Below are positions 21,523 to 63,665 of a stretch of 64,000 nucleotides of DNA, piece after piece (position 1 is the first letter of the stretch; every line of letters starts with the position of its first letter). The DNA comes from a bacterium. GTDB lineage: Bacteria > Orphanbacterota > Orphanbacteria > Orphanbacterales > Orphanbacteraceae. The stretch covers positions 14,139-78,138 of the forward strand of contig JALGYY010000047.1 in assembly GCA_025782575.1 (NCBI GenBank), written 5' to 3'. The notes beneath the pieces are model-generated. The model was not told where the DNA came from and made no database searches. It worked only from the letters and a program-made list of their open reading frames with translations. Both the position numbers and the translations under genes were made by a program.

Positions 21523-22341
21523 TTGCAGAAACGAACTCAAGGAGAGAAGTACGTGAAATGCCATGAGGTGGAATATGAGATTTTCGGGGACGACATGCAG
21601 GTGGTGGAGGTCGAGCTCGACCCCAACGAATCAGTAATCGCTGAAGCGGGCGCTATGAACTGGATGGAGGAGCAGATTACGTTCGAGGCGCGCATGGGAG
21701 ATGGTTCGAAACAGGACGAAGGCGTAATCAGCAAGCTCCTCAGTGCCGGGAAAAGAGTGCTCACAGGTGAATCAATTTTCATGACCCATTTCATGAATGC
21801 CGGTTCAGGGAAAAAGCGCGTTGCGTTTGCCGCGCCTTACCCCGGAAAAATCATCCCGATCGACATGGCGGCGGTAGGCAATGAGCTGATCTGCCAGAAG
21901 GATTCATTTCTCTGCGCCGCGCTCGGAACGGAAGTGAGCATTGCCTTCGCCAAACGACTCGGCACCGGTTTCTTCGGCGGCGAAGGGTTCATTCTGCAGC
22001 GACTCCGCGGTGATGGCATGGCATTCGTCCATGCGGGGGGGACCGTGATCAAGAGGGAGCTGACAGGAGAAACGCTTCGCGTTGATACGGGTTGTATCGT
22101 AGCGTTTTCGCCCGGTATCGATTACGACATTCAGCGGGCGGGTGGGCTCAAATCGATGTTCTTCGGCGGCGAGGGTCTGTTCCTGGCAACTCTTCGTGGT
22201 ACAGGTACGATCTATCTGCAGAGCCTGCCGTTTTCGCGGCTCGCCGACCGCGTGTTGGCGCATGCCCCCCGTGCGGGGGGAAGCAGGAAGGGTGAAGGGT
22301 CCGTCCTCGGCAAACTCGGCAATCTGCTGGACGGAGATTAG
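21523..22341 (+). CDS. TIGR00266 / AIM24-family protein (DUF124)
   Basis: (V)[39 protein letters not shown] matches the conserved N-terminus of TIGR00266-family proteins. The true start may be GTG 21553. Confidence 0.7.
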
Positions 22342-22355
22342 TCCGGAGATCAGTA

Positions 22356-22946
22356 ATGAGAGGGTCAATAGTCATGAGAGTCGGGAAAATGCAGGTCGCT
22401 GCCATCGCTATCTTTGCGCTTCTCTTCGCGTTCGGGTGCGGTGACGACGAGTCCCCTGTCGGTGCGAACGGCAACGGTATTCCCACCGGAAACCAGGCGC
22501 CGGATTTCGCACTGGCCGATGTCAACTCCTCGTCGGCAACCAATGGTGAAATGGTCTCGCCGCGGGATTACGAAGGAAAAGTATCGGCATGGTACTTCGG
22601 TCGCTCCACCTGAGGTTACTGTCTTAGCCAGTTTGGCTATCTCAACCAGATCCAATCTGAGATCAACGAATCAAAGACGGGCCTCGAAATCCACATCCTG
22701 GGTCTGAACGGCGCAGGCCACGAAGGGGGAAACGGAACAGTCCCCGATTTCGGAACTCTTCCCTGGCTTCAGGATACGGACGAGCAACATGTATGGGAGA
22801 CCTGGTCGGTGACGTACAGAGATGTCGTCATTCTTGATTCTGATAACGAGCCGTTTGCCGTATACAATTTAACGGAAAACGATCTTTCCAGGTCGGAGTA
22901 TCGCGATGCTCTTCGGGCGCTCCTTGATCAGGCAGCCGGAGATTGA
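22356..22946 (+). CDS. TlpA/redoxin-like thiol-disulfide oxidoreductase lipoprotein, predicted selenoprotein (in-frame UGA 22611-22613 read as Sec; UxxC)
   Basis: The track ORF 22356..22613 ends ...KVSAWYFGRST*. The same frame continues with no stop for 110 codons to TGA 22944-22946, giving ...YFGRST-U-GYCLSQFGYL... plus a thioredoxin-fold C-half (VPDFGTLPWLQDTDEQHVWETWSVTYRDVVILDSDNEPFAVYNL). The UGA occupies the first Cys of the CxxC redox motif. Lipoprotein signal ALLFAFGC. Confidence 0.6.
22614..22650 (+). promoter_or_regulatory. Candidate bacterial SECIS hairpin immediately 3' of the UGA
   Basis: GGUU-acugucu-UAGCCA-guu-UGGCUA-ucuc-AACC. Lower 4-bp stem, internal loop, and a 6-bp upper stem starting 12 nt after UGA, with a small G/U-containing apical loop. 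Topology is consistent with bSECIS. Confidence 0.4.
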
Positions 22947-22968
22947 GCATTCGGGAGAAGACTCAGAA

Positions 22969-24723
22969 ATGCCCCGTATGAGTACCGCTTGGCGCCGCTC
23001 TATCGTTTTGCTCTCCATTCTTTCAGTTGCCGCTCTCTTCGGAGGGTGCGGATCTGACGATGACGGTGTGGTCGGTCCCGGAGGATCCGAACTCGCCCTT
23101 TTCATCAACGAGTTGCTCGCGAACAATTCCACAGGACTTGCTGATCCCGACTTTGGTGAGAAGAGCGATTGGATCGAGATTTATAACGGCGAAGGTGAAG
23201 CGGTCGATATGGGCGGATTCGGGTTGACGGATGATCGTTCCCAACCATTTAAGTGGGTTTTTCCTGCCGGCACGATGATCCCGGCCGGCGGGTTCCTGAT
23301 CGTATGGGCAGATGACGGCGACACGACGGCGATCGCCCATCACGCCAACTTCAAGCTGAGTTCCGGCGGAGAAAAAGCAGTGCTGTTCGATGCCGATGGT
23401 AACGTCGTGGATCTCGTTGAATTCGGCGCGCAGGTGGAAGACATCTCCTACGGACGAACGGCGGACGGCGGAGGCCAGTTCGGCACGTTCACCGTTCCCA
23501 CGCCGGGAGTGACGAATGGTGCCGCCGTGACACCGGCCGCGATTCATATCAACGAGTTCCTAGCGGACAATGAAAACGGAATCGTCGATCCGGATTTCGG
23601 TGAAACGGGTGACTGGGTGGAGCTCTATAACAGTGGAGACCTGTCGGCCAATATCGGGGGTTGGACGATGACGGATGATCTCGAGGATCCGGGGCAGTGG
23701 ACCTTTCCGCCGGGAACTTCAATCGACGGCGGGGGCTTCCTTCTCGTATGGGCCGACAAAAACGACACGTCGGCCGTAGCGCATCACACGAATTTCAAGC
23801 TGAGCTCCGGGGGCGAATCGATCGGACTTTTCGATGGGGCAGGGAAAGTGGTGGACAGCCTCACCTACGGCGAGCAGCAACCAGATGTCTCGTACGGCCG
23901 GATCGAGGATGGCGAATCGGAGTTTGCGGGTTTCGGAAGCCCGACGCCCGGGGAAAGTAACGAGAATTCCACGCCGGACGCGCCCCCCGTCATCCATGCG
24001 GTGTGGATCTCGCCGGCATTCCCGACCGCAGAAGATAGCGTCAGGATCACGGCGATCGTTACGGACGATATGTCACTCGGTCTGGTCAGGCTTTTTCACA
24101 ATATCGGCGGCCAGACCGTGGTCGGAATGACCGAGACGGGGGCCGATACATTCTTTGTAGTGTTACCGCCCCAACCATCCGAAACAGTGGTCGAATACTA
24201 TATGGAGGCGACGGACGAAGCCCTGCAGGTTACGAGCGCCCCATCAGACGCTCCAGCATCTCTGTTCAGTTATCTGGTTGCTTCCGCACCTCCGATGGTG
24301 GTGATCAACGAGTTTCTCGCGAGCAACGACAGCACCAATATCGATCCCGATTTCGCGGACTACGGAGACTGGCTGGAGCTATACAACGCCGGCGCATCTC
24401 CGGTCGATCTCGGCGGGTGGTATCTGACTGATGACCTTGCTGATCCGACATTATGGGAGATTCCTTCAAGTACTTCGCTCGCCGTCGGTGCTCATCTGCT
24501 GATCTGGGCGGATGACGGGGACACCACGGGCATCGCTCTTCACACCAATTTCAAGTTGAAGAGTGGTGGGGAGGAGATCGGGCTCTTCACGGCCGGCCAG
24601 GTACCCATGGATACGCTCACCTACGGTGTCCAGGCGACTGACGTATCGTACGGACGATCAACCGATGGCGGTTCGGAGTGGGAGTTCTTCGACATACCGA
24701 CGCCGGGCGAATCGAACGAATAG
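22969..24723 (+). CDS. Lipoprotein with four tandem lamin-tail-domain (LTD) repeats
   Basis: Lipobox AALFGGC. Four ~130-aa repeats of INEfLA-N...DPDFGE-GDW-ElYN.G...-GGw-LTDD...W-fP-gT-I-GGFL-vWADdgD...A-H-NFKL-S-GGE-igLF...G..VD..tYG. This is the LTD (PF00932) signature. Confidence 0.8.
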   Translation: MPRMSTAWRRSIVLLSILSVAALFGGCGSDDDGVVGPGGSELALFINELLANNSTGLADPDFGEKSDWIEIYNGEGEAVDMGGFGLTDDRSQPFKWVFPAGTMIPAGGFLIVWADDGDTTAIAHHANFKLSSGGEKAVLFDADGNVVDLVEFGAQVEDISYGRTADGGGQFGTFTVPTPGVTNGAAVTPAAIHINEFLADNENGIVDPDFGETGDWVELYNSGDLSANIGGWTMTDDLEDPGQWTFPPGTSIDGGGFLLVWADKNDTSAVAHHTNFKLSSGGESIGLFDGAGKVVDSLTYGEQQPDVSYGRIEDGESEFAGFGSPTPGESNENSTPDAPPVIHAVWISPAFPTAEDSVRITAIVTDDMSLGLVRLFHNIGGQTVVGMTETGADTFFVVLPPQPSETVVEYYMEATDEALQVTSAPSDAPASLFSYLVASAPPMVVINEFLASNDSTNIDPDFADYGDWLELYNAGASPVDLGGWYLTDDLADPTLWEIPSSTSLAVGAHLLIWADDGDTTGIALHTNFKLKSGGEEIGLFTAGQVPMDTLTYGVQATDVSYGRSTDGGSEWEFFDIPTPGESNE

Positions 24724-32546: not shown

Positions 32547-32797
32547 GCGCCGCTCCTCACCGAGGCGCCGCTCCTCACCGAGGCGAACGGTCCTTCTCCC
32601 GGGGGCCGTCTCCGGGGCTCCTGATCGTCGCCCCTCGCCTACTCGCTCGGCCGGCCCGTAGAATCTTCGCACGAAAATGGGCAGGGTCTTGACTAACCCT
32701 GCCCATTTTCAATGCTCTCATTCAACGGGGCCGCCGGCCTCGTCTCGTTAATCCCCCCGGGAGAAGGACCGTTCGCCTCGGTGAGGAGCGGCGCCTA
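32547..32797. repeat. MITE-like palindromic element: 41-nt terminal inverted repeats flanking ~150 bp with a central hairpin
   Basis: Left arm 32547-32605 is gcgccgctcctcaccgaggc[gccgctcctcaccgaggc]gaacggtccttctcccggggg, including an 18-nt tandem duplication. Right arm 32754-32794 is its exact reverse complement. Each arm directly abuts a TAG stop codon (32544-46 on +, 32795-97 on -). Confidence 0.6.
32673..32710. terminator. Bidirectional intrinsic terminator inside the palindromic element
   Basis: gaaaatgggcaggg-tcttgactaa-ccctgcccattttc is a perfect 14-bp stem. An A-tract lies on the 5' side and a T-tract on the 3' side, on both strands. Confidence 0.55.
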
Positions 32798-35272
32798 GCG
32801 GAGCAGTACTATCTTCTGTGTGACAGTTTCGCCGCCTGTTTCGAGGCGTAGAAAGTAGATCCCCGCCGCCACACGACCGTTACCGGAACCCAGGCCGTTC
32901 CATGTAGCCGTATGGCGTCCGGCGGACTGAACGCCGGTTACGAGGCGCGAAACGAGCCGGCCTCGTATGTCGTATACGACAAGACTGACATCGGACGTGG
33001 CGGGCAGATTGTAGACGACGGTCGACTGCGACCGGACCGGGTTCGGACGGATGCTTTCGAAGCGGAGCGGACCGCCACCCAGAGGGGGCGCGTCAGGCGT
33101 GCCGGTCGAGGTCCCCTGCTTCAGCACCAGGAGGCCCATCTGGGGAATGGTGAGAAGAGTAGATTGAGTGAAACCATCGGCCGATATCGCATCGACCGTA
33201 ATCGAAGGATTGGTCAGCCCGTTCCCTTCATATTGCGTCGCCTGGCTGTTAATGATCTCTGTCCAGGTGCCTCCGGCCGGGAGGCCGACGCGATAGTTAT
33301 TCCAGTTTCCGTTGTTGAAATTCGCGATGATGACGAAGACGTTGCCGGCGTTGTCCCAGCGTTGCCACGCGATCACATTCCCGCTCTCGTTCTGATGAAA
33401 TACCTGATGAGATGCGTCTGCCCGGAGCGCGGGGTTCGTGGTGCGCCACGAGATCATTTCTTTGTAGTATTGGAAGATCCCCGCGTAGGTCGTCTTCTTT
33501 GACCAGTCGATCCTGTTCGCCGGGTCGGTGCCGAAGTCAGTATCCTCGAGCCATTCGGATCCCATGAGCATGGCCGGCACACCGGGCGAAAACATCACGA
33601 TGCCCTGAGCCAGCTTCGATCGCCCCTTCGCCCACATATCGTCGTGGGGAAAAGTAGTATCGATTGTCTTAACCAGTCGCTGTCCGCCGCTCGACGGCCA
33701 TGCCTCGTCATGAAGTTCCACATAGTTCGTAACCTTGACGCCGCTGAGATCTACACCGCCGCCGTTGATAATGTTACGAATCTTCCAGATTTCCGGGTCG
33801 CCCAGCGCGGCGTCGAAGATCTCCTCGCGAAGACGATCCGTGAAGTTGTCGTAGTATTGGGAATCGAACCCGGCGCCTCCGGTACCGGTTGACCGCGTGA
33901 CCCAGCTGTCATCGGGTAACTGCTCTGCGATCGAAACCTTGTTTGCCCATCGCCAGTCGATCAGATCGTTGAACTCCTGCATGAGTGACCAACCTGACGC
34001 GTCCTGAGGCGGGATATTCATGAAATCGGTCGCATCCATTCGGAACCCGTCGACATGGTATTCCTCGAGCCAGTGAAGGGCACTGTGCAGAAAATAGTCG
34101 CGCACATTCTGGTTGTCGAAATCTGCCTGATCACCCCAGGGGGTACCCACGGCCGGATTGTCGAAGTAGATCTGGTTGCCGTCGTAGAACCAGAGGAAGT
34201 TGTCGGTCGATGAAAAGTGATTCCAGAGAATATCAAGTAACACCGCGATCCCGTGATTGTGAAACGAATCGATCATCGCCTTGCACTCGTCCGGTGTCCC
34301 GTAAACCCAATCGGGGGCGAACTCGGTGACCGGGTTATACCCGGCGGAGAGATCGCCCGCAAACTCGGTGATCGGGTTGAGCATCACAGCGTTGACACCG
34401 AGATCGGCAAGCTGATAAACGCGATTCGCGACGTCGAGATAACCGGACGGGTGAGCGACTGTTCCTTGTGGATCATTCCGCCCTGCAAACGATCCGACGT
34501 GAAGCTGGTAAATCACCATTTCTTCAAGGTCGGGCGTGTCGAAATCCGCGAGTGCCCATGAATACGCAAAGGGATCCTGGATGATCGAATTCTGATTGGC
34601 GGCAGGGTTCAGCCCGCGGGCACGAGGGTCCGGTTTCCAGAGATTGTTGTCGAAATAATACTTGTATTCATCGAGAGGTGACGCGCCCGTCACATGCGCA
34701 ATGTAGTGTTCCCCCACTTTGAATAAGGGATTCGTTGTCGCCCACGCGTTGAACTTTCCCCGCACGCGGGCGGACGTAGGGTTCGGCGCCCATACTTTGA
34801 AAACGACGCCGCTGCTGGTCGGCGTCGCACCGAGCGGCGCATGGTCGAGAGTGAGGAAGTTGACCACATAGCCGCTGTCTAGCGGGACGGCATCAGACAT
34901 TCCGTTGATGCTGTTGTAGTCGGTATCGGTTCCGTCGGTCAGTTCGAAGTAATACTTTGCGATTCCCGATCCGGTCAGCGGCACCTGGGCCGACCAGATG
35001 TCGTAAGGGCCCCGGCCCCCTGCGAGTGATCCTGAAAGAGTGTCGAGAAGGCCGCCGTCATCTACGAAAACCTGCAGAGCCGTGATGTCATTGGCCCACG
35101 TCTGGATTCGCACTTCGAACGATTCGGACGAAATCGGTGCGAGTGGCCTCCGGTCCTGCCAGGGAATGTGCGAGACACCGTTCCACTCGACATTGTTGTC
35201 TGGAGCGGCTGCAAACAGGGTCGTGGCACCCACACAGGCGGCCAGACAGAACAGAAAGGACTTTCGTAGCAT
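32795..35272 (-). CDS. GH13 alpha-amylase-family enzyme with N-terminal CBM48-like domain and C-terminal T9SS sorting domain
   Basis: Signal peptide. GVVFKVWAPNPTSARVRGKFNAW (CBM48/E-set), HVDGFRMDATDFM (GH13 region II), NYVELHDE. C-terminal ...AAGIYFLRLETGGETVTQKIVLLR is a Por/T9SS CTD. Confidence 0.8.
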   Translation of the reverse strand: MLRKSFLFCLAACVGATTLFAAAPDNNVEWNGVSHIPWQDRRPLAPISSESFEVRIQTWANDITALQVFVDDGGLLDTLSGSLAGGRGPYDIWSAQVPLTGSGIAKYYFELTDGTDTDYNSINGMSDAVPLDSGYVVNFLTLDHAPLGATPTSSGVVFKVWAPNPTSARVRGKFNAWATTNPLFKVGEHYIAHVTGASPLDEYKYYFDNNLWKPDPRARGLNPAANQNSIIQDPFAYSWALADFDTPDLEEMVIYQLHVGSFAGRNDPQGTVAHPSGYLDVANRVYQLADLGVNAVMLNPITEFAGDLSAGYNPVTEFAPDWVYGTPDECKAMIDSFHNHGIAVLLDILWNHFSSTDNFLWFYDGNQIYFDNPAVGTPWGDQADFDNQNVRDYFLHSALHWLEEYHVDGFRMDATDFMNIPPQDASGWSLMQEFNDLIDWRWANKVSIAEQLPDDSWVTRSTGTGGAGFDSQYYDNFTDRLREEIFDAALGDPEIWKIRNIINGGGVDLSGVKVTNYVELHDEAWPSSGGQRLVKTIDTTFPHDDMWAKGRSKLAQGIVMFSPGVPAMLMGSEWLEDTDFGTDPANRIDWSKKTTYAGIFQYYKEMISWRTTNPALRADASHQVFHQNESGNVIAWQRWDNAGNVFVIIANFNNGNWNNYRVGLPAGGTWTEIINSQATQYEGNGLTNPSITVDAISADGFTQSTLLTIPQMGLLVLKQGTSTGTPDAPPLGGGPLRFESIRPNPVRSQSTVVYNLPATSDVSLVVYDIRGRLVSRLVTGVQSAGRHTATWNGLGSGNGRVAAGIYFLRLETGGETVTQKIVLLR

Positions 35273-44215: not shown

Positions 44216-46216
44216 CTAGCGGAAGTGCACGACCCGTCCTTTTCGTTCATCGTTTCCGACGGCGACACGCCAGAAGTAGACACCAGACCGGACTTCAGCG
44301 CCACTGTCATCGCGGCCGTCCCATGTGGTTTCATAGGCGCCGGGTGACTTCGATTCGTTCACGAGGTTTCGAACGCGCCGGCCGGCTACATTGTAAATCG
44401 CCACTTCCACCGATGCGCTCGACACGCCGCTGACGGAGTAGGCGAGACGGGTGCTCTCACGGAACGGGTTGGGTGCGGCGCCGAACAGCGTTGATATCGG
44501 CCGACCCGCGGTTCCCTCAGTAATGCCGGTGGCAGGGCCCGTTACTGAATAGCCTCTCTCCGTGAACCGGTCAATCATTGCAGTGATATCCGAACCGGAG
44601 TAATTCATATTGATAGCCGCCTGAAGCATAGCCTGCGCGGCGTCTTCCTGGTTCGTCGATGAGTTCGTCATTGCGAGCCCTTCCAGGCAGGCTTTGTCGG
44701 TCAGCTCGCGGCCGATGTCATTCCAGATTCTCATGAGACCGGTCGACCAGATCTGGCCGTCCGTATGAATCTGGTTGATCAGGCCACCCGGATAAATAGC
44801 CCCGTAGTTTGTCTTACGCCCGCCCCAGAACGGATTGTGCCCGTCCCAGCTGAAGACCCACTGGTATTCCGGCGTGCCGGGCACCCACTGGCCGAGGCTC
44901 CGGCTGTAGGAAGCGGCCATGTAGTCGCCGAAGCCTTCGCTCAGCCCGTTCACCTGAGAGAGGCTCCCCCCTGTCAACCAGTCGTGAATGCCGTGGCCCA
45001 GTTCGTGGATCACCACATCGGCATCCTCGGAATCATCGACCCCTCCTTCGCCGAACGAGATTCGGCCGGATCCGCTCAAATAGTACGAGTTGTCGGAGCC
45101 GCTCAGCCCATGCGGATCGAACTGGACGCCGCCGCCGTACTGGTAGGGAGAAAGGGTCAGCCCAAGTGTAGTGTTGATGTAGCGCATGATGTTATCGATA
45201 TGCCAGTAACAGAGCACTGCCTCAAACCCGTTGTCCTGCCGATTGAAAAGAAAGTCAGGGCCGGCCTGCGCGAAAAGCCCGCGGAAAGGATTCTCGAAAT
45301 CGATGACCTCCGCGTAGGGCCCCTCGAGCTTGTACTGCCCGCCTGAAAACAGTATGTCGGGGAGATTCTTCAGAAACCGCTCGGCATCGAGCTGGGCATT
45401 TGTGGAGTCGCTGTTATCCGCGTAGTTTCCGCCGTAGGAAACCTGGGCGCTTGATAGCGGATCGGGATCCCAAAGATAGCCCGTTCCGGTTGCGTAAAAC
45501 GCCTTATCCTCCGCACGAAAAATCTCTCCCGTATGGGCGTCAAAAAGTATTTCCCACTCGCCGATCGGTCCGTCAACCGCGTGGAGAGTCATCTTCCACG
45601 CTAGTCGGGGAGCATCACCGTTCGGATAGACGACCAGCTCGGTTTTTTCGTAAGAGAGTGCACCTTGAATTTCCAGGTATTCCAGCGCGGCGGTGCGTGC
45701 CACGGCAGCGGAAAGGGAAGGGTGGGTGGAAGGAAGAAGAGCGGCGTCTACCGATTCCACGCCGTTCATCACGAAGACCACTGAATTGTCATGGTCTATC
45801 GTAATGGCGACATCGGCGCCGTAAACCGGGACGCCGCCTGCGTGTTGCACGAATCGCACGACCGTGCCTGCCTGACCGGCGCGTGTCATCCTGTGGACCA
45901 TCTCGTCGAGTGCGCGCTCGCTGATGTGCAGGGTTTCCCTCGCCTCGCGTAGATATTGACGTGCCATCTCGCGGGGTGATTCCCCGGTTACCTCGTGATC
46001 GAGGTTGTAGAGCGTGATCGGTCTGCCCGTCTCAGTGTTTACTCTCGCGTTTCCGTCCAGGTGAGTCGGTGCCATCCTCTCGGACAGGGGGATTCGCTCG
46101 AGCATGTCCATCTTGAGGGACGCTGTTTTCGGTCGTTTTGCCTCGGATTCTCCAGGCAATAAGAGAGCTGCGGCGAACAGGGCGGCCGCGCACATCAGGA
46201 TGCGACGTTTCATCAT
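44216..46216 (-). CDS. Secreted zinc metallopeptidase (HExxH; M4/M36-like) with C-terminal T9SS sorting domain
   Basis: Signal peptide MMKRRILMCAAALFAAALLLPGESEA. VVIHELGHGIHD (HExxH) and downstream EGFGDY (third zinc ligand, Glu). C-terminal ...SGVYFWRVAVGNDERKGRVVHFR is a T9SS CTD. Confidence 0.7.
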   Translation of the reverse strand: MMKRRILMCAAALFAAALLLPGESEAKRPKTASLKMDMLERIPLSERMAPTHLDGNARVNTETGRPITLYNLDHEVTGESPREMARQYLREARETLHISERALDEMVHRMTRAGQAGTVVRFVQHAGGVPVYGADVAITIDHDNSVVFVMNGVESVDAALLPSTHPSLSAAVARTAALEYLEIQGALSYEKTELVVYPNGDAPRLAWKMTLHAVDGPIGEWEILFDAHTGEIFRAEDKAFYATGTGYLWDPDPLSSAQVSYGGNYADNSDSTNAQLDAERFLKNLPDILFSGGQYKLEGPYAEVIDFENPFRGLFAQAGPDFLFNRQDNGFEAVLCYWHIDNIMRYINTTLGLTLSPYQYGGGVQFDPHGLSGSDNSYYLSGSGRISFGEGGVDDSEDADVVIHELGHGIHDWLTGGSLSQVNGLSEGFGDYMAASYSRSLGQWVPGTPEYQWVFSWDGHNPFWGGRKTNYGAIYPGGLINQIHTDGQIWSTGLMRIWNDIGRELTDKACLEGLAMTNSSTNQEDAAQAMLQAAINMNYSGSDITAMIDRFTERGYSVTGPATGITEGTAGRPISTLFGAAPNPFRESTRLAYSVSGVSSASVEVAIYNVAGRRVRNLVNESKSPGAYETTWDGRDDSGAEVRSGVYFWRVAVGNDERKGRVVHFR

Positions 46217-46383
46217 TAGAATATTCCCTCGGGAGCGGGTTTTCGAAATCAGGCAGAACCGGTCTGGTACTGGGAGGCCCTCATTATAGAGGAAAAGGGC
46301 GCGGAAATCCACAAGAAGAAAAACGGGACAAATAGAGATCGCCGGTCTGCGGAACGGGCGGGCCGTCTGGTCCTACTGATTTT

Positions 46384-48137: not shown

Positions 48138-49943
48138 ATGCGTCTCCGTTTGAAGAGTTCAGCTGGACACCTGACGACAATTGCTCTCGGATTTCTGTTC
48201 CTGCTTGCCTGGGGCGGTTCGGCCGCGGCCGGCACCGATGCTTGGCGGGACAAGATCCAGGCGGGCCTCCTGGAAGAGGCTACGACTCTGGAGACCGAGT
48301 TTCTCGTCTTTCTCGGCGAGCAGGCTGATCTTTCGGCGGCGGCCCTGATGGGGACGAAATTAGAGAAAGGTCGCTACGTTTTCGAAACGCTGAGCCGTAC
48401 GGCCGATCTTACACAGGCCTCTCTTCTGAATGTACTCGAGGGGGAAGGGGTGCCACATCGACCCTACTGGGTGGCCAATATGGTCTGGGTCAAAGGGGAC
48501 GCTACGCTCGTAGAACGAATGGCGGAGCGAGCGGATGTGCGGGGCGTTTACGCGAATCCGATCGTCCAGTTTGAACAGCCTGTGGCGATCGAGGCGGGCG
48601 CACCGAAGGTGGCGGGAATCGAATGGAACATCTCCCAGGTGAACGGCCCGAACGTCTGGGCCATGGGGAACACCGGACAGGGGACGGTGGTCGGGGGAAT
48701 CGACACGGGCTATGACTGGGATCACCCGGCCGTTATCGATCAGTATCGTGGTTGGGACGGTGTCTCGGCCGATCATAATTACAATTGGCACGACGCGATT
48801 CACTCGGGGAGCGGCGGGTCGTGCGGGCTTGACTCGGCTGTTCCTTGCGATGACCACGGACATGGTACTCACACGATGGGGACCATGGTGGGAGATGACG
48901 GCGGCAGCAATCAGATCGGCCTCGCTCCGGGCGCGAAGTGGGTCGGTTGCCGTTGCATGGATGTGGGCTTCGGTACGCCTGCGCGCTACACGGAGTGTCT
49001 CGAGTGGATGATCGCCCCCACCGATCTGAACGACATGTTCCCCGACCCGTCGAAAGCACCCGACGTGATCAATAATTCGTGGAGCTGCCCCCCTAGCGAG
49101 GGGTGCACCGATCCACTCGTCATGCAGACAGTGGTTGAGAATGTGAAGGCGGCGGGAATCGTCGTTGTAGTGAGTGCGGGGAATTCGGGATCGGCTTGCA
49201 GCACGGTCGAAGATCCGATCGCTATTTATGAAGCATCGTTTTCAGTCGGTGCGACTGACGACAATGACGACATTGCAGGCTTCAGCAGCCGCGGTCCTGT
49301 CACTTCGGACGGCAGCAATCGTATGAAACCTCAGGTGAGCGCGCCGGGAGTGATCGTCCGTTCCTGCGTTCCGGGTACCGGTTATACCAGCCTGAGCGGG
49401 ACGAGCATGGCAGGGCCACACGTGGCCGCGGCGGCTGCGCTTGTGATCGCCGCGAATCCCGTTCTCCAGGGGCAGGTCGACAATGTCGAAAGCATTCTCG
49501 AGCAGACGGCGCTTGCCCGTACCACTACCCAGACTTGTGGCGGTGTTCCGGGAACGAGCATTCCGAATAACACATACGGCTGGGGGCGGATTGACGCGCT
49601 GGCCGCTGTAAATGAAGCAATCAGCCAGGCGGTTTCGGTGGATGGCGCAAACGCCGTTCCCGCCCGCTATTCTCTCTCCGCAGCCATGCCGAATCCCTTC
49701 AACCCGCGCACTACCATTCGATTCGACATCCCGGAGCGTAGCGATGTTTCGATCCGTGTGTTTGATGTGGTCGGCCGTGAAGTGCGCCCCCTGATCAGCA
49801 GAACGAACCTCGAGGCAGGTCGGCACTCCGTCGATTGGAACGGTCTCGACAGTCGTGGCGACGACGTACCGTCAGGCATCTACTTCTATCGCATGAACGC
49901 CGGCGAATTCCAGTCGACCGGCCGGATGGTTCTGGTTCGGTGA
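48138..49943 (+). CDS. Subtilisin-like serine peptidase (S8) with C-terminal T9SS sorting domain
   Basis: Catalytic triad motifs VVGGIDTGYDWDHPA (D), HGTHTMGTMVG (H), GTSMAGPHVAAAAAL (S). C-terminal ...SGIYFYRMNAGEFQSTGRMVLVR is a T9SS CTD. Confidence 0.85.
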   Translation: MRLRLKSSAGHLTTIALGFLFLLAWGGSAAAGTDAWRDKIQAGLLEEATTLETEFLVFLGEQADLSAAALMGTKLEKGRYVFETLSRTADLTQASLLNVLEGEGVPHRPYWVANMVWVKGDATLVERMAERADVRGVYANPIVQFEQPVAIEAGAPKVAGIEWNISQVNGPNVWAMGNTGQGTVVGGIDTGYDWDHPAVIDQYRGWDGVSADHNYNWHDAIHSGSGGSCGLDSAVPCDDHGHGTHTMGTMVGDDGGSNQIGLAPGAKWVGCRCMDVGFGTPARYTECLEWMIAPTDLNDMFPDPSKAPDVINNSWSCPPSEGCTDPLVMQTVVENVKAAGIVVVVSAGNSGSACSTVEDPIAIYEASFSVGATDDNDDIAGFSSRGPVTSDGSNRMKPQVSAPGVIVRSCVPGTGYTSLSGTSMAGPHVAAAAALVIAANPVLQGQVDNVESILEQTALARTTTQTCGGVPGTSIPNNTYGWGRIDALAAVNEAISQAVSVDGANAVPARYSLSAAMPNPFNPRTTIRFDIPERSDVSIRVFDVVGREVRPLISRTNLEAGRHSVDWNGLDSRGDDVPSGIYFYRMNAGEFQSTGRMVLVR

Positions 49944-53740: not shown

Positions 53741-54487
53741 ATGAAAATCGATCCCGCCAGCCGATTCGATGGAACAGTGAAAGATTATCATCTCTACCGT
53801 GCCGGCTATCCGCCGGCACTATTCGACTGGCTGTTTCGGACCGTGACTTCGGGGCGGAAGTCGAAAATCGCCGACATCGGTTGCGGCACCGGCATATCGA
53901 CACGGGCGCTCGCTGAAGCGGGTGCAGAAGTTACGGGTGTCGACCCGAATCGGGAGATGCTCGACTGTGCGCGGTCCATCGGGGGGGGCGCAAAATACCG
54001 GGAGGGGATGGCGAACGACACCGGCCTTACAGGCCGCGCGTTCGATCTTGTGACCGCAGCTCAGTCCTTCCACTGGTTCGATCCCGACACCTGCCTGCCC
54101 GAATTCAGGCGGATTCTACGATCAGGTGGCGCGGTCGCTGCGTTCTGGAACTGCCAGGAGAATTCACCGTTCCTGGCTGATTACGATCAGATGCTTCGCG
54201 AGCATTGCACCGAGTATAGGGGCTCGTCGAACTGGTCAGCCACGATCGAGAGGATCAGGGCCTCATCCAGCACAGAAAACGTCCGTGAAGCTGCCTTTCC
54301 GAACAGCCAGGAGTTTGATGCAGACGGCCTCCTGGGCCGGGTCAAGTCGTGTTCGTACGTGCGGCACGGAGTGGCGAGGCCCGATCGACTCGAACAGGCG
54401 GTTAGGGGCCTGTCCTACAAACATCAGGCGGGCGGGCTCGTCCGTATGGAGTATAGAACTGCCATAATCTGCTGGAACCTGGCCTGA
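53741..54487 (+). CDS. Class I SAM-dependent methyltransferase
   Basis: Motif I ADIGCGTGISTRALAE, motif post-I VTGVDPNREML, motif II FDLVTAAQSFHWF. Confidence 0.85.
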   Translation: MKIDPASRFDGTVKDYHLYRAGYPPALFDWLFRTVTSGRKSKIADIGCGTGISTRALAEAGAEVTGVDPNREMLDCARSIGGGAKYREGMANDTGLTGRAFDLVTAAQSFHWFDPDTCLPEFRRILRSGGAVAAFWNCQENSPFLADYDQMLREHCTEYRGSSNWSATIERIRASSSTENVREAAFPNSQEFDADGLLGRVKSCSYVRHGVARPDRLEQAVRGLSYKHQAGGLVRMEYRTAIICWNLA

Positions 54488-60782: not shown

Positions 60783-63563
60783 TTAGCGGATCATTACGAT
60801 CCGATGTGTTACCGTCTGATTCCCGGCACGATGGCGTGCGAGATAAACCCCCGCCGCCAGTGCTCTGCCCCGTTCATCCCGTCCATCCCAGAGTAGCACG
60901 TTCTCCCCGGCTGATGCGCCTCTCCTTTCCAGGTGCCTCACTTCTCTTCCCGCCGGCGTGTAGATCGTAACCGCCAGATCAGCACTTCCGGGAAGATGAA
61001 AACGGAATCCGACGGACTGCTGGAATGGACTGGGGTAGGCATGCATGAAACGAGGCTTTCCCGCAGCAGCATTTGAAAGGTCATCGGAATCAAGCGATGC
61101 GATCAGCGTGAAGTGCTTCGTCAGACCGGTAGCGGCGACCAAGACCGAACCGTCAGGATCGACCGGGACGCGCGACCCGGTATCCTTGTTGACCCATGTA
61201 AGTTTTAACTCTTCCGGCAAATCAAAGCTGATAAACCGAATGAGGACCTCGCCCGGTCCTTCTACGCCGCTGAGCACGATCTCCCATTTATTCGAACGGG
61301 CGGGAGGTACGAAGTCGTGGACGTAATCACCGCTCATCGCTCCCCAATTGTGGTGCGGTAGATAGAGCCGTAGTCCGCCATCCGGGGGGTGAGGGGGGAG
61401 TGCTCGGCTGAGGGGATTCCATTTATTACCGGCGTCATTTGATACGCCGACGAGAACGGCAGCACCGACCGCTTCATTCGTTGTCGCCCGAATACTGATC
61501 GCCCAATCCGCATCAACCGGTTTGGAGACGGGCATCGGCTCTATGGATCGATACTTCTGCACGGCGTCGATTGGAAAGATCAGATGAGCGGGGCCATCTG
61601 TCAGTTTGCGTATCCAGAACCCCACACCACGCCCGAAGCCACTGAGATCGAGATACTGATCGCCGAACCAGGATTGTACCGTCCGATCAGTCAGATCGTT
61701 TTCGCTGCTCGTAACCTGGACCGTGTCGATGCCGTCGGTCACGAGCAGGTCATTCGTCAATATTGTTCCGTTATGAGGGAATCCGATCTGGTTCCAGGCG
61801 GCCGCGCCGCCGGGACCGCTCGCGAGCGAGACCGAGACGTCTCCTTCCGGGTAGAATCCCCATGGCGTAAAGAGGGAATCGACAGAACCGTCGGTTATCA
61901 TCCAGTAGCCGGCGCCCGTTTCTGTCATGTCGGTTGCCGATACCAGATCTTCATAGGCTTCATCGGCCGGACTCCAATGCCCCACTTTCCAGGTCTTGTC
62001 GTTGAACGGACCAAGAGTATCCATGATGGCGGTGATGCTTCGCTCACCTGCAGTCTCGGGGGCGAGTGGAAACGAAACCATATCCCATCGACGTTCGACG
62101 AGCGGGAAGATGATCGCGTTCGGAGTAACAGCGGGGGCGTTCATCACAGTGAGATCGGTCGTGTCGGCACACCCGGCACGGCTGGCGATAATCGATGTCG
62201 TCCCTTCCGTAAGGCCGAGCGCCTCCCCTTCCGACGAGATTGTCGCGATCGAAATACTCGTTGACTTCCAGATCGAGGCGACTTCGCTCTCGAAATCGGC
62301 ATCGGGCCACACGCCGCTCCGGAACCGCCCGGTTGCCGTGTACTCTAGAATCTCATCGGTTTCGATCGTGTCGTTCGCCGGTTCAACGGTGAGCTCTAGC
62401 AATTCAGCCTCAAACAGGTATTTCAGGTCGCCGTTCCCCTTGTCGTAGTAGGTGATCTGGGCGAATCCCAAAGTGTCGAGACGGAGGGTCACGATCTCGC
62501 CGACATCTCCCTCGGTATCGAAATCAAAGTCCTCCCATTGATCGTCGGTGATCCGGACGGCGAGATTGAGATCAGCCTCGGGAAGGACATAGTAAGCGAT
62601 AATCGGTCCGAACCGGCTCACGTCGATTGAAACGGGTCGGCTGTCTCCCCATATGCCCGCGTCGTCAACCAGTTCCGGATTGAAATCACTCTCCCGTGCC
62701 GCGAAGTAGAGATTGGCCTGGCCGGGGATCATGTCTTCTGTCGATTCAACCCAGGCGATGTAGACATCATTCTGATCGTCGATAGCGATGGAGGACCAGC
62801 CGATACCGTTGTCCGACGGCAGGTCGAGCGTGGCGACTCTCACTCGTTCCCAGTCGCCGCTCTCGTTGGTGACGTAGTGAACGTTGATGGAGTCGTCGTA
62901 GATATTCGTGTAGCTGATGTGCGCCTTACCCTCACTGTCGAGTACAAGCTGACACTCGAACCCGGCGAATTCCGACGAGTCGACAGTCTGATGGATAAAG
63001 AGGTCGCCATTCAGGAACGCGTACTCGAGGTTCAGGCTGTCGTTGTCGCAATAGGCGATGTGTGGATTGCCCTGTTCGTCCACAGTCAATGAGGACCATG
63101 ATCCTTCTGTGAGAGTATCGGCGGAAGAGACAAGCGTGCGGACCCAGTCCCCCGGTCGGTTTCGTACGGCGTACCAGAGCTCAGCATCTGCACGGTTCTC
63201 TTCGGTCACGTAGTAGGTGACATGGGGAATACCGCCCGAATCTACGGCGATTGAGTTGTACCAGCCGGCCTCACCGGCCGTCTGAATGATTTCCGGTGGT
63301 GTGAATTGAAGAGTCGACTTTTCGTAGCGTGTGTAGAAGATCGATCCGCTCTCTTCGTCGAAGTAGACGATGTGAGCCCTGCCCTCGCTATCGAGATCCA
63401 TAGCGGACCAGCGGCCGGCATTGCCTGCGGTGACGAGCGACTCGGTAAAGAACAGTGTGAACCCGCCGCCCGCGTGGACGGGGGCCGGAAACAGTATCGC
63501 AATCACCCCGATCAGGCAGGCGATTCCGGACGACACATATCGATTTCGCTCACACTTAAACAT
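60783..63563 (-). CDS. Large T9SS-secreted surface protein: N-terminal beta-propeller-like repeats, Big_2 domain, C-terminal Por sorting domain
   Basis: Signal peptide (start taken at the ATG giving MFKCERNRYVSSGIACLIGVIAILFPAPVHA). Repeated H[IV]xY blades (HIVYFDEE, HVTYYVTEE, HIAYCDND, HISYTNIY, YIAWVEST). Big_2-like segment (TVEPANDTIETDEILEYTATG...). C-terminal ...AAGVYLARHRAGNQTVTHRIVMIR. Confidence 0.65.
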   Translation of the reverse strand: MFKCERNRYVSSGIACLIGVIAILFPAPVHAGGGFTLFFTESLVTAGNAGRWSAMDLDSEGRAHIVYFDEESGSIFYTRYEKSTLQFTPPEIIQTAGEAGWYNSIAVDSGGIPHVTYYVTEENRADAELWYAVRNRPGDWVRTLVSSADTLTEGSWSSLTVDEQGNPHIAYCDNDSLNLEYAFLNGDLFIHQTVDSSEFAGFECQLVLDSEGKAHISYTNIYDDSINVHYVTNESGDWERVRVATLDLPSDNGIGWSSIAIDDQNDVYIAWVESTEDMIPGQANLYFAARESDFNPELVDDAGIWGDSRPVSIDVSRFGPIIAYYVLPEADLNLAVRITDDQWEDFDFDTEGDVGEIVTLRLDTLGFAQITYYDKGNGDLKYLFEAELLELTVEPANDTIETDEILEYTATGRFRSGVWPDADFESEVASIWKSTSISIATISSEGEALGLTEGTTSIIASRAGCADTTDLTVMNAPAVTPNAIIFPLVERRWDMVSFPLAPETAGERSITAIMDTLGPFNDKTWKVGHWSPADEAYEDLVSATDMTETGAGYWMITDGSVDSLFTPWGFYPEGDVSVSLASGPGGAAAWNQIGFPHNGTILTNDLLVTDGIDTVQVTSSENDLTDRTVQSWFGDQYLDLSGFGRGVGFWIRKLTDGPAHLIFPIDAVQKYRSIEPMPVSKPVDADWAISIRATTNEAVGAAVLVGVSNDAGNKWNPLSRALPPHPPDGGLRLYLPHHNWGAMSGDYVHDFVPPARSNKWEIVLSGVEGPGEVLIRFISFDLPEELKLTWVNKDTGSRVPVDPDGSVLVAATGLTKHFTLIASLDSDDLSNAAAGKPRFMHAYPSPFQQSVGFRFHLPGSADLAVTIYTPAGREVRHLERRGASAGENVLLWDGRDERGRALAAGVYLARHRAGNQTVTHRIVMIR

Positions 63564-63665
63564 GGTAGGCGAATGGTAACCGCTCCGCCCCGGGCTGTCC
63601 AGAGCCTGCGAAGGGGAGACAGTCCCGGGATTTCGATTTTTCATTTTGGCGGTCGGGTACCCGGC

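Follow-up and report, generated by a model that had tools for sequence, protein, structure and literature searches.

A putative SelB-type SECIS hairpin downstream of an in-frame UGA in a TUGYCR-motif thioredoxin-fold gene

The TUGYCR gene, its family and its surroundings

The window, by which we mean the whole analysed stretch of 64,000 nucleotides, carries a gene of the TUGYCR redoxin family that is interrupted by an in-frame TGA (Table 1). Translation of 22356-22946 through this triplet is unbroken (...KVSAWYFGRST*GYCLSQFGYLNQ...), and read-through gives ...WYFGRST-U-GYCLSQFGY.... The likely start is the ATG at 22374, which is preceded by GAGAGGG, with an alternative ATG at 22356, and the gene stops at the TGA of 22944-22946. 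With U entered as C, the protein matched the NCBIfam model NF053656.1 ('redoxin_TUGYCR, TUGYCR motif thioredoxin fold (seleno)protein') with 206.6 bits (E=1.4e-61), where the curated cutoff is 100 bits, and covered positions 2-145 of the 146 in the model. Pfam returned weak AhpC-TSA and Redoxin matches. The active site reads T-U-G-Y-C-L and thus differs from the eponymous motif in its final residue, Leu (CUU) replacing Arg, a substitution that costs the hairpin described below its basal G-C pair as well. In relatives the residue after the second Cys can also be S, G, K or Q.

Table 1. Features at and around UGA 22611 in window coordinates
Feature	Position	Strand	Basis
Putative selenoprotein gene (TUGYCR redoxin family), with read-through of TGA 22611	22374..22946	+	Continuous read-through translation and family match
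Signal peptide ending in Cys, MRVGKMQVAAIAIFALLFAFGC, probable lipoprotein anchor	22374..22439	+	Read from the sequence
Putative Sec-encoding UGA, first position of the UxxC redox motif (T-U-G-Y-C)	22611..22613	+	In-frame TGA in 20 other loci, TGC/TGT in 10 homologues
Spacer of 11 nt, from the UGA to the first pair of the stem in the window	22614..22624	+	Ungapped alignment A3
Lower stem GGUU 22614-22617 / AACC 22644-22647, as proposed earlier	22614..22647	+	Can form in the window, unconserved
Stem in the family register, 22624-22629 / 22635-22640, loop AGUUU 22630-22634	22624..22640	+	RNAalifold consensus
Putative SECIS hairpin, stem 22625-22630 / 22634-22639, loop GUU 22631-22633	22625..22639	+	Inverted repeat, covariation, RNAalifold, covariance model
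Apical loop A-G-U-U-U	22630..22634	+	Invariant columns of A3

The homologues span both halves of the window protein, and UGA 22611 aligns with the first Cys of the CxxC motif in those that have Cys. The homologues found in the databases fall into three groups. Full-length proteins with Cys at the site form the first (P0002-P0007). The second consists of C-terminal fragments whose first residue is a Met shortly past the motif (P0008-P0013), the pattern left behind when gene callers stop at a Sec-UGA. The third is P0001, which has W at the site and whose DNA reads TGA there (L024:560, JGI Ga0673031_0472716); the W is an annotation artefact, probably produced by a gene caller that used an alternative code.

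Read from the sequence, the N-terminus of the window protein (MRVGKMQVAAIAIFALLFAFGC) resembles a lipoprotein signal. Given a signal peptide that ends in Cys, the protein is therefore probably extracytoplasmic. Lipobox-like N-termini are present in homologues as well, and the TUGYCR family as a whole appears to be extracytoplasmic, the homologues that point in this direction being P0004, P0005, P0008 and P0010-P0013. On Planctomycetota homologues we also observed C-terminal extensions with a dockerin (PF00404) or PEP-CTERM (PF07589) domain.

A sequence profile search of the solved structures gave no match at E<=0.01, and the fold was for that reason compared instead, using the Cys homologue P0002, modelled with AF2 (AlphaFold2; pLDDT 90.2), as a stand-in for the window protein. 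In this model Cys63, the equivalent of Sec, lies at the N-terminus of helix 1 (64-83), right behind the strand VSAWYFG, which in the model is the classic position of the CxxC site in a thioredoxin fold. The nearest solved folds were those of ResA, DsbE, CcmG and Etrx, with ResA as the best match (E=4.8e-10, TM 0.82). These nearest relatives in fold are all extracytoplasmic, membrane-anchored thiol-disulfide oxidoreductases, and the window family shares with them and with TlpA the thioredoxin fold, the placement of the active site at the helix 1 N-terminus and the N-terminal anchor or signal. In addition, a recent review lists Sec-containing 'Prx-like thiol:disulfide oxidoreductase' and 'Redoxin family' selenoproteins of the UxxC type (PMC13188914); the UxxC motif is common to these and the window protein, a likeness that goes by description.

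The product of the gene directly downstream (22906-24723, plus strand) contains three Lamin Tail Domains (PF00932, E=1.2e-61), and its N-terminus, counted from the ATG at 22969, is likewise lipoprotein-like (..LSVAALFGGC). Synteny of this gene with the selenoprotein gene was seen in none of the related loci, and no relative of any of the six neighbouring genes of the window was present in the regions that flank the homologous loci. Elsewhere in the window a FlgD_ig / Por_Secre_tail C-terminal domain is found on secreted enzymes encoded at 32795-35272, 44216-46312, 48138-49943 and 60783-63644 (an alpha-amylase, an M36-like peptidase, a subtilase and a BNR protein), which suggests a T9SS-type sorting signal and an organism resembling the FCB group or Eisenbacteria. 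A survey of the window for other selenoprotein candidates yielded 72 in-frame TGAs with long open flanks, 12 of which have a Cys nearby. The only other one with a downstream hairpin (5 bp), the TGA at 53914 on the plus strand with a UxxC-like context, was rejected as an out-of-frame shadow of the gene at 53741-54487.

The hairpin in the window and among relatives

The stretch 22611-22650 reads UGAGGUUACUGUCUUAGCCAGUUUGGCUAUCUCAACCAGA. Within it the repeat finder reported TAGCCA (22625-22630) and TGGCTA (22634-22639) as a 6-nt inverted repeat, 100% complementary and with 3 nt between the arms. The RNAfold MFE structure of this 40-mer (-9.7 kcal/mol) has the corresponding 6-bp upper stem, together with three of the four lower-stem pairs that an earlier note on this DNA had proposed. 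The perfect 6-bp upper stem with a small loop, as described in that note, is thus borne out by the repeat finder and the MFE fold, and also by the covariation presented below; its placement 12 nt after the UGA was right too, as 22625 is the 12th nucleotide.

Judged on the single sequence the hairpin is nevertheless weak evidence and within chance. The z-score of the 40-mer was -0.95, with 32 of 200 shuffles folding as well, and single-sequence folds in four contexts gave z-scores of about -0.7 to -1.1. The folding check suggested earlier therefore returned the upper stem as part of the MFE fold, but with a stability at chance level. The bare 23-nt hairpin of the window (-6.6 kcal/mol) is about the weakest in the family, the relatives ranging from -6.5 to -13.0 kcal/mol. 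Moreover, when both strands of the window are taken together, 43 of the 2062 TGA triplets (2.1%) have a hairpin of at least 6 WC-bp that agrees with the bSECIS rules for loop and spacing, while the narrow hairpin geometry of the family occurs at 4 of the 2062 (0.2%). A second perfect 6-nt inverted repeat, ATCTCA 22639-22644 / TGAGAT 22658-22663 with 13 nt between the arms, adjoins the 3' arm of the hairpin; it is probably due to chance, because the downstream region is unconserved in the family alignment.

It is the comparative data that lift the upper stem far beyond what chance would give. Two peptide patterns, one of them upstream of the UGA, were used to scan one genome per species and yielded 23 loci, in which the codon at the Sec site is an in-frame TGA (18 loci) or TGC (5 loci). 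With two further TGA forms, L024 and L025:1067, there are 20 TGA loci besides the window, and they span at least four phyla: Planctomycetota (Phycisphaerae and others), Eisenbacteria, Gemmatimonadota and Myxococcota. The DNA downstream of the UGA was aligned for 19 sequences (alignment A3). The alignment is ungapped, and the spacing between UGA and stem is therefore invariant across all 19.

All TGA forms have the hairpin in the same register, with a 6-bp stem and an AGUUY loop, and in all 21 TGA sequences the stem is free of bulges. All six pairs are formed in 20 of the 21, whereas the window forms five of six in the family register, position 22624-22640 being U.U because codon +4 is Leu CUU in the window versus Arg CGN. 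The relatives, with this one additional basal pair, have a spacer of 10 nt. The stem sequences themselves differ widely (AGCC/GGCU, GACC/GGUC, GCUC/GAGC, GCCC/GGGU, AGUC/GACU, GGCC/GGCC, GUCC/GGAC, GGUC/GACC). The A3 columns C28, A29, G30, U31 and U32, by contrast with these variable arms, are invariant in 19 of 19 sequences.

In the stem columns of A3 (23-29/33-39) 93.2% of the cells are paired, and five of the seven stem pairs show compensatory changes, on both sides, in a total of 24 cells. The check for covariation in orthologues that had been called for thus turned out in favour of the hairpin, which stands at the same position in all TGA forms. The covariation score was 0.603 versus 0.218 +/- 0.036 in shuffles, and none of 500 shuffles reached 0.603, although the sequences are related and the shuffles consequently overstate independence. 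On three of five measures the observed value was attained by 0 of 500 shuffles. When, as a control, the 3' arm was slid by 1-3 columns, the fraction of paired cells was 28-43%. RNAalifold, unprompted, returned columns 23-28/34-39 only (window 22624-22629 / 22635-22640) with the 5-nt loop AGUUY, and five of the six pairs in this stem are compensatory.

The earlier note had envisaged a structure of two tiers, in which a lower stem and an internal loop support the upper stem, and this part of the description did not hold: the conserved element is the single 6-bp stem with its 5-nt AGUUY loop. The lower stem GGUU/AACC was rejected as a part of the element, since only 57.9% of its cells are paired, its third pair (15-44) is formed in 3 of 19 sequences, and it is absent from the RNAalifold consensus. 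In longer contexts the lower part refolds, UGAGGU/AUCUCA replacing the lower stem at 56 nt and other arrangements appearing up to 91 nt. An alternative lower stem that includes the UGA itself (UGAG/CUCA) has 84% of its cells paired and almost no covariation; this pairing could come about as a by-product of the codons for Gly and Leu.

A covariance model built in leave-one-out fashion from the 20 relatives, with the window left out, scored 46.7 bits on the window site (E~2e-10), as compared with 30.3 bits for a sequence-only model from the same alignment. The site was the only significant match to the covariance model in the 64 kb. The Rfam scan of 22300-23000 at E<=10 placed no family on 22611-22650 and gave two chance matches elsewhere, to eukaryotic families; to our knowledge Rfam holds no model of the bacterial SECIS.

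The pairing is also visible in the proteins. Across the family the residues +5 and +8 after Sec covary (S/G, D/G, A/E, A/G, S/D, V/G, G/D), with pairing always preserved, and they do so because their codons form the stem. Furthermore, the synonymous third base of codon +4 (column 24) covaries with residue +9 (column 38), the combinations being CGU-Tyr, CGA-Phe, AGC-Arg and UCC-Arg.

Comparison with bacterial SECIS elements and the proposed mechanism

As a reference we used the bSECIS consensus, that is the bSECISearch model of Zhang & Gladyshev as summarised in a 2026 review (PMC13188914). It specifies an apical loop of 3-9 nt with an upper stem of 4-16 bp beneath it, a G as the first or second nucleotide of the loop, which is mostly N1-G-(G or U)-N-N2 with N1/N2 pairing, a distance of 16-37 nt from UGA to loop, and an MFE <= -7.5 kcal/mol (PMC13188914). 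The window stem-loop lies within the ORF, directly 3' of the in-frame UGA, and the frame remains open to 22946. Its stem has 6 bp and its loop 3 nt (GUU), where the family consensus has 6 bp and 5 nt. The loop, (A)GUU(U), has G at position 1 or 2 followed by U, and its A and U are pairable. The distance from the UGA is 17 nt to the GUU loop and 16 nt to the AGUUU loop, which is the bottom of the 16-37 range, and the SelB-compatible spacing that had been claimed for the hairpin accordingly falls within the consensus constraints. With respect to the energy limit of -7.5 kcal/mol the outcome depends on the stretch that is folded, the 40-nt element having -9.7 and the 23-nt bare hairpin -6.6 kcal/mol. 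The structure is kept in Sec orthologues and Cys replaces Sec in other homologues, again as for bSECIS elements; the window element differs in lacking a conserved lower stem.

The minimal SECIS of E. coli fdhF has the sequence GGUUGCAGGUCUGCACC (PMC10945757). Like it, the window element is a stem-loop of 17 nt; 10-11 nt separate it from the UGA, and its loop is closed by a potential A-U and has G-U exposed. As in fdhF, only the upper hairpin appears to matter. The differences are that the window stem is perfect and without the bulged U, that the loop is AGUUY rather than AGGUCU (GGUC-type), that the G-U is 2 nt closer to the UGA, and that the stem has an unrelated sequence, free to vary among family members. 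By analogy, then, the window element would work like the fdhF SECIS while not being its relative in sequence, and the G-U dinucleotide of the loop is presumed to be the contact of SelB. For fdhF, Liu et al. 1998, Fourmy et al. 2002 and Yoshizawa et al. 2005 reportedly describe a spacing of 11 nt and the roles of the exposed G23 and U24.

Taken together, we consider it very probable from the sequence comparisons that the hairpin is a functional SelB-type bSECIS which, at 22611, directs the insertion of Sec into the U-G-Y-C site of an exported TlpA/ResA-like oxidoreductase. The bridging of SECIS and Sec-tRNA by SelB is the established bacterial mechanism (PMC10778597). Applied to the window, it would run as follows. 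As the ribosome nears UGA 22611, the 6-bp stem would display the small loop and its exposed G-U at a distance of 16-17 nt downstream of the UGA. SelB, loaded with GTP and Sec-tRNA(Sec), would bind this loop through its C-terminal winged-helix domain and would deliver the Sec-tRNA to the UGA in the A-site in competition with RF2. Translation would then continue to the stop at 22944, and in the product Sec would be the attacking residue of the U-G-Y-C redox motif. We infer that SelB does bind, that Sec is actually inserted and that selA, selB, selC and selD are located elsewhere in the genome. TGA is the ordinary stop of 12 of the 30 Pfam-supported genes in the window, which argues for the standard code with local recoding and against a reassigned code.

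One could also imagine that the hairpin stimulates read-through independently of SelB, by near-cognate decoding as Trp, Cys or Arg or by a local inhibition of RF2, and that the residue is not Sec. The 64-kb window shows no Sec machinery, with 0 tRNAs, hence no tRNA-Sec, and no SelA, SelB or SelD domains in its 37 ORFs, and the database entry P0001 translates the codon as W; that W, however, is the artefact over a TGA codon noted above, and among homologues the codon aligns only with Cys, never with Trp or Arg, which is the classic Sec/Cys signature. The position in the thioredoxin-fold CxxC site moreover needs a nucleophilic residue, and the small G-U loop and the spacing of 16-17 nt match the SelB-type consensus. 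We therefore regard SelB-independent read-through as very unlikely, and SelB-directed insertion of Sec as the preferred reading.

Selenocysteine forms versus cysteine forms

The comparison of Sec forms and Cys forms bears on whether the hairpin has a function at the level of the RNA. Ten Cys forms have between 1 and 5 of the 6 stem pairs, a clear contrast with the Sec forms (Fisher p=2.5e-7, Mann-Whitney p=1.3e-7). In the Cys forms that retain the QFG peptide (L017, L019, L020, L027 and L029) 2-3 of the 6 pairs are formed. Exhaustive synonymous recoding of the six stem-loop codons showed that, per TGA form, the observed pairing survives in 2-11% of the variants, whereas for the Cys forms the stem pairing is at chance level. 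The covariance model likewise scored the Cys forms at 14-19 bits, with the exception of a Cys paralogue in L025 (42.9 bits).

These results decide on the possibility that codon bias and a conserved peptide (x-S-Q-F-G-Y) give rise to the hairpin as a by-product, with no function of the RNA and with the UGA read otherwise or not at all. The loop codons CAG-UUY do encode an invariant Gln-Phe that is conserved in the Cys forms too, and such a by-product would agree with the insignificant single-sequence fold and with the comparable hairpins at 2.1% of the TGA triplets in the window. Yet Cys forms with the same QFG peptide fail to form the stem, and all 21 TGA forms have a pairing that few synonymous variants would keep. 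In addition, a synonymous position (column 24) covaries with the amino acid at column 38, and the residues +5 and +8 change together. The contrast between Sec and Cys forms thus already contradicts an origin as a by-product, which we hold to be even less likely than read-through without SelB.

Least likely of all is a true stop at TGA 22611, with a split gene, a pseudogene or two small genes and a hairpin that is incidental or serves mRNA stability: gene callers do split the homologues here (P0008-P0013 start from the downstream Met) and the ORF listing ends at 22613, but the in-frame TGA and some 110 further open codons are kept in 21 loci of at least four phyla, the remaining homologues have Cys at the catalytic CxxC position, no start codon or RBS belonging to the downstream half is found at a conserved position, the hairpin, which was not called as a terminator, has no U-run or U-tail behind it, and the curated family model names a selenoprotein. 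The earlier preference for recoding over termination is upheld by the alignment of UGA with Cys, by the curated family and by a hairpin with compensatory changes in 21 TGA forms.

Within the preferred reading, that of a SelB-type SECIS, one locus seems to show how the element is lost. L025:566-2022 (ENA k141_730334) contains tandem paralogues of the family, first a Sec form (TGA 1067) with a hairpin of 6/6 pairs and then a Cys form (TGC 1687) with a hairpin of 5/6 pairs. The pair appears to represent a recent Sec-to-Cys conversion after duplication; it looks recent because the Cys copy still has 5/6 pairs and the 42.9 bits mentioned above. More generally, we think it rather likely that the SECIS overlies a functionally conserved Gln-Phe, which is encoded in the loop, that the stem codons force the covariation of +5 and +8, and that this constraint relaxes immediately once Sec has been replaced by Cys. 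If true, the family would offer a clean example from nature of how RNA pairing dictates correlated amino-acid substitutions in a protein helix, and it could provide a calibrated model for the constraints of SECIS elements on selenoprotein evolution and on the conversion of Sec to Cys.

Part of this is known already, as NCBIfam curates the family as a (seleno)protein and the RNA element is of the textbook kind; the known mechanism of Sec insertion is unchanged by the result. Nevertheless, no mention of the TUGYCR motif was found in the literature searched, and the table of selenoprotein families in PMC13188914 does not contain NF053656. For these two reasons the family-specific description of the SECIS may be unpublished. 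The description combines a stem of 6 bp, an AGUUY loop and a spacing of 10 nt from the UGA; it separates Sec from Cys forms and could serve in the annotation of metagenomes, where gene callers split the family or read the UGA as Trp. In the window, the ORF that ends at 22613 should be annotated as one selenoprotein of 190-196 residues and not as a truncated gene. By implication, the source organism and its relatives among the Eisenbacteria, Planctomycetota, Gemmatimonadota and Myxococcota would use selenocysteine in an exported thiol-disulfide oxidoreductase.
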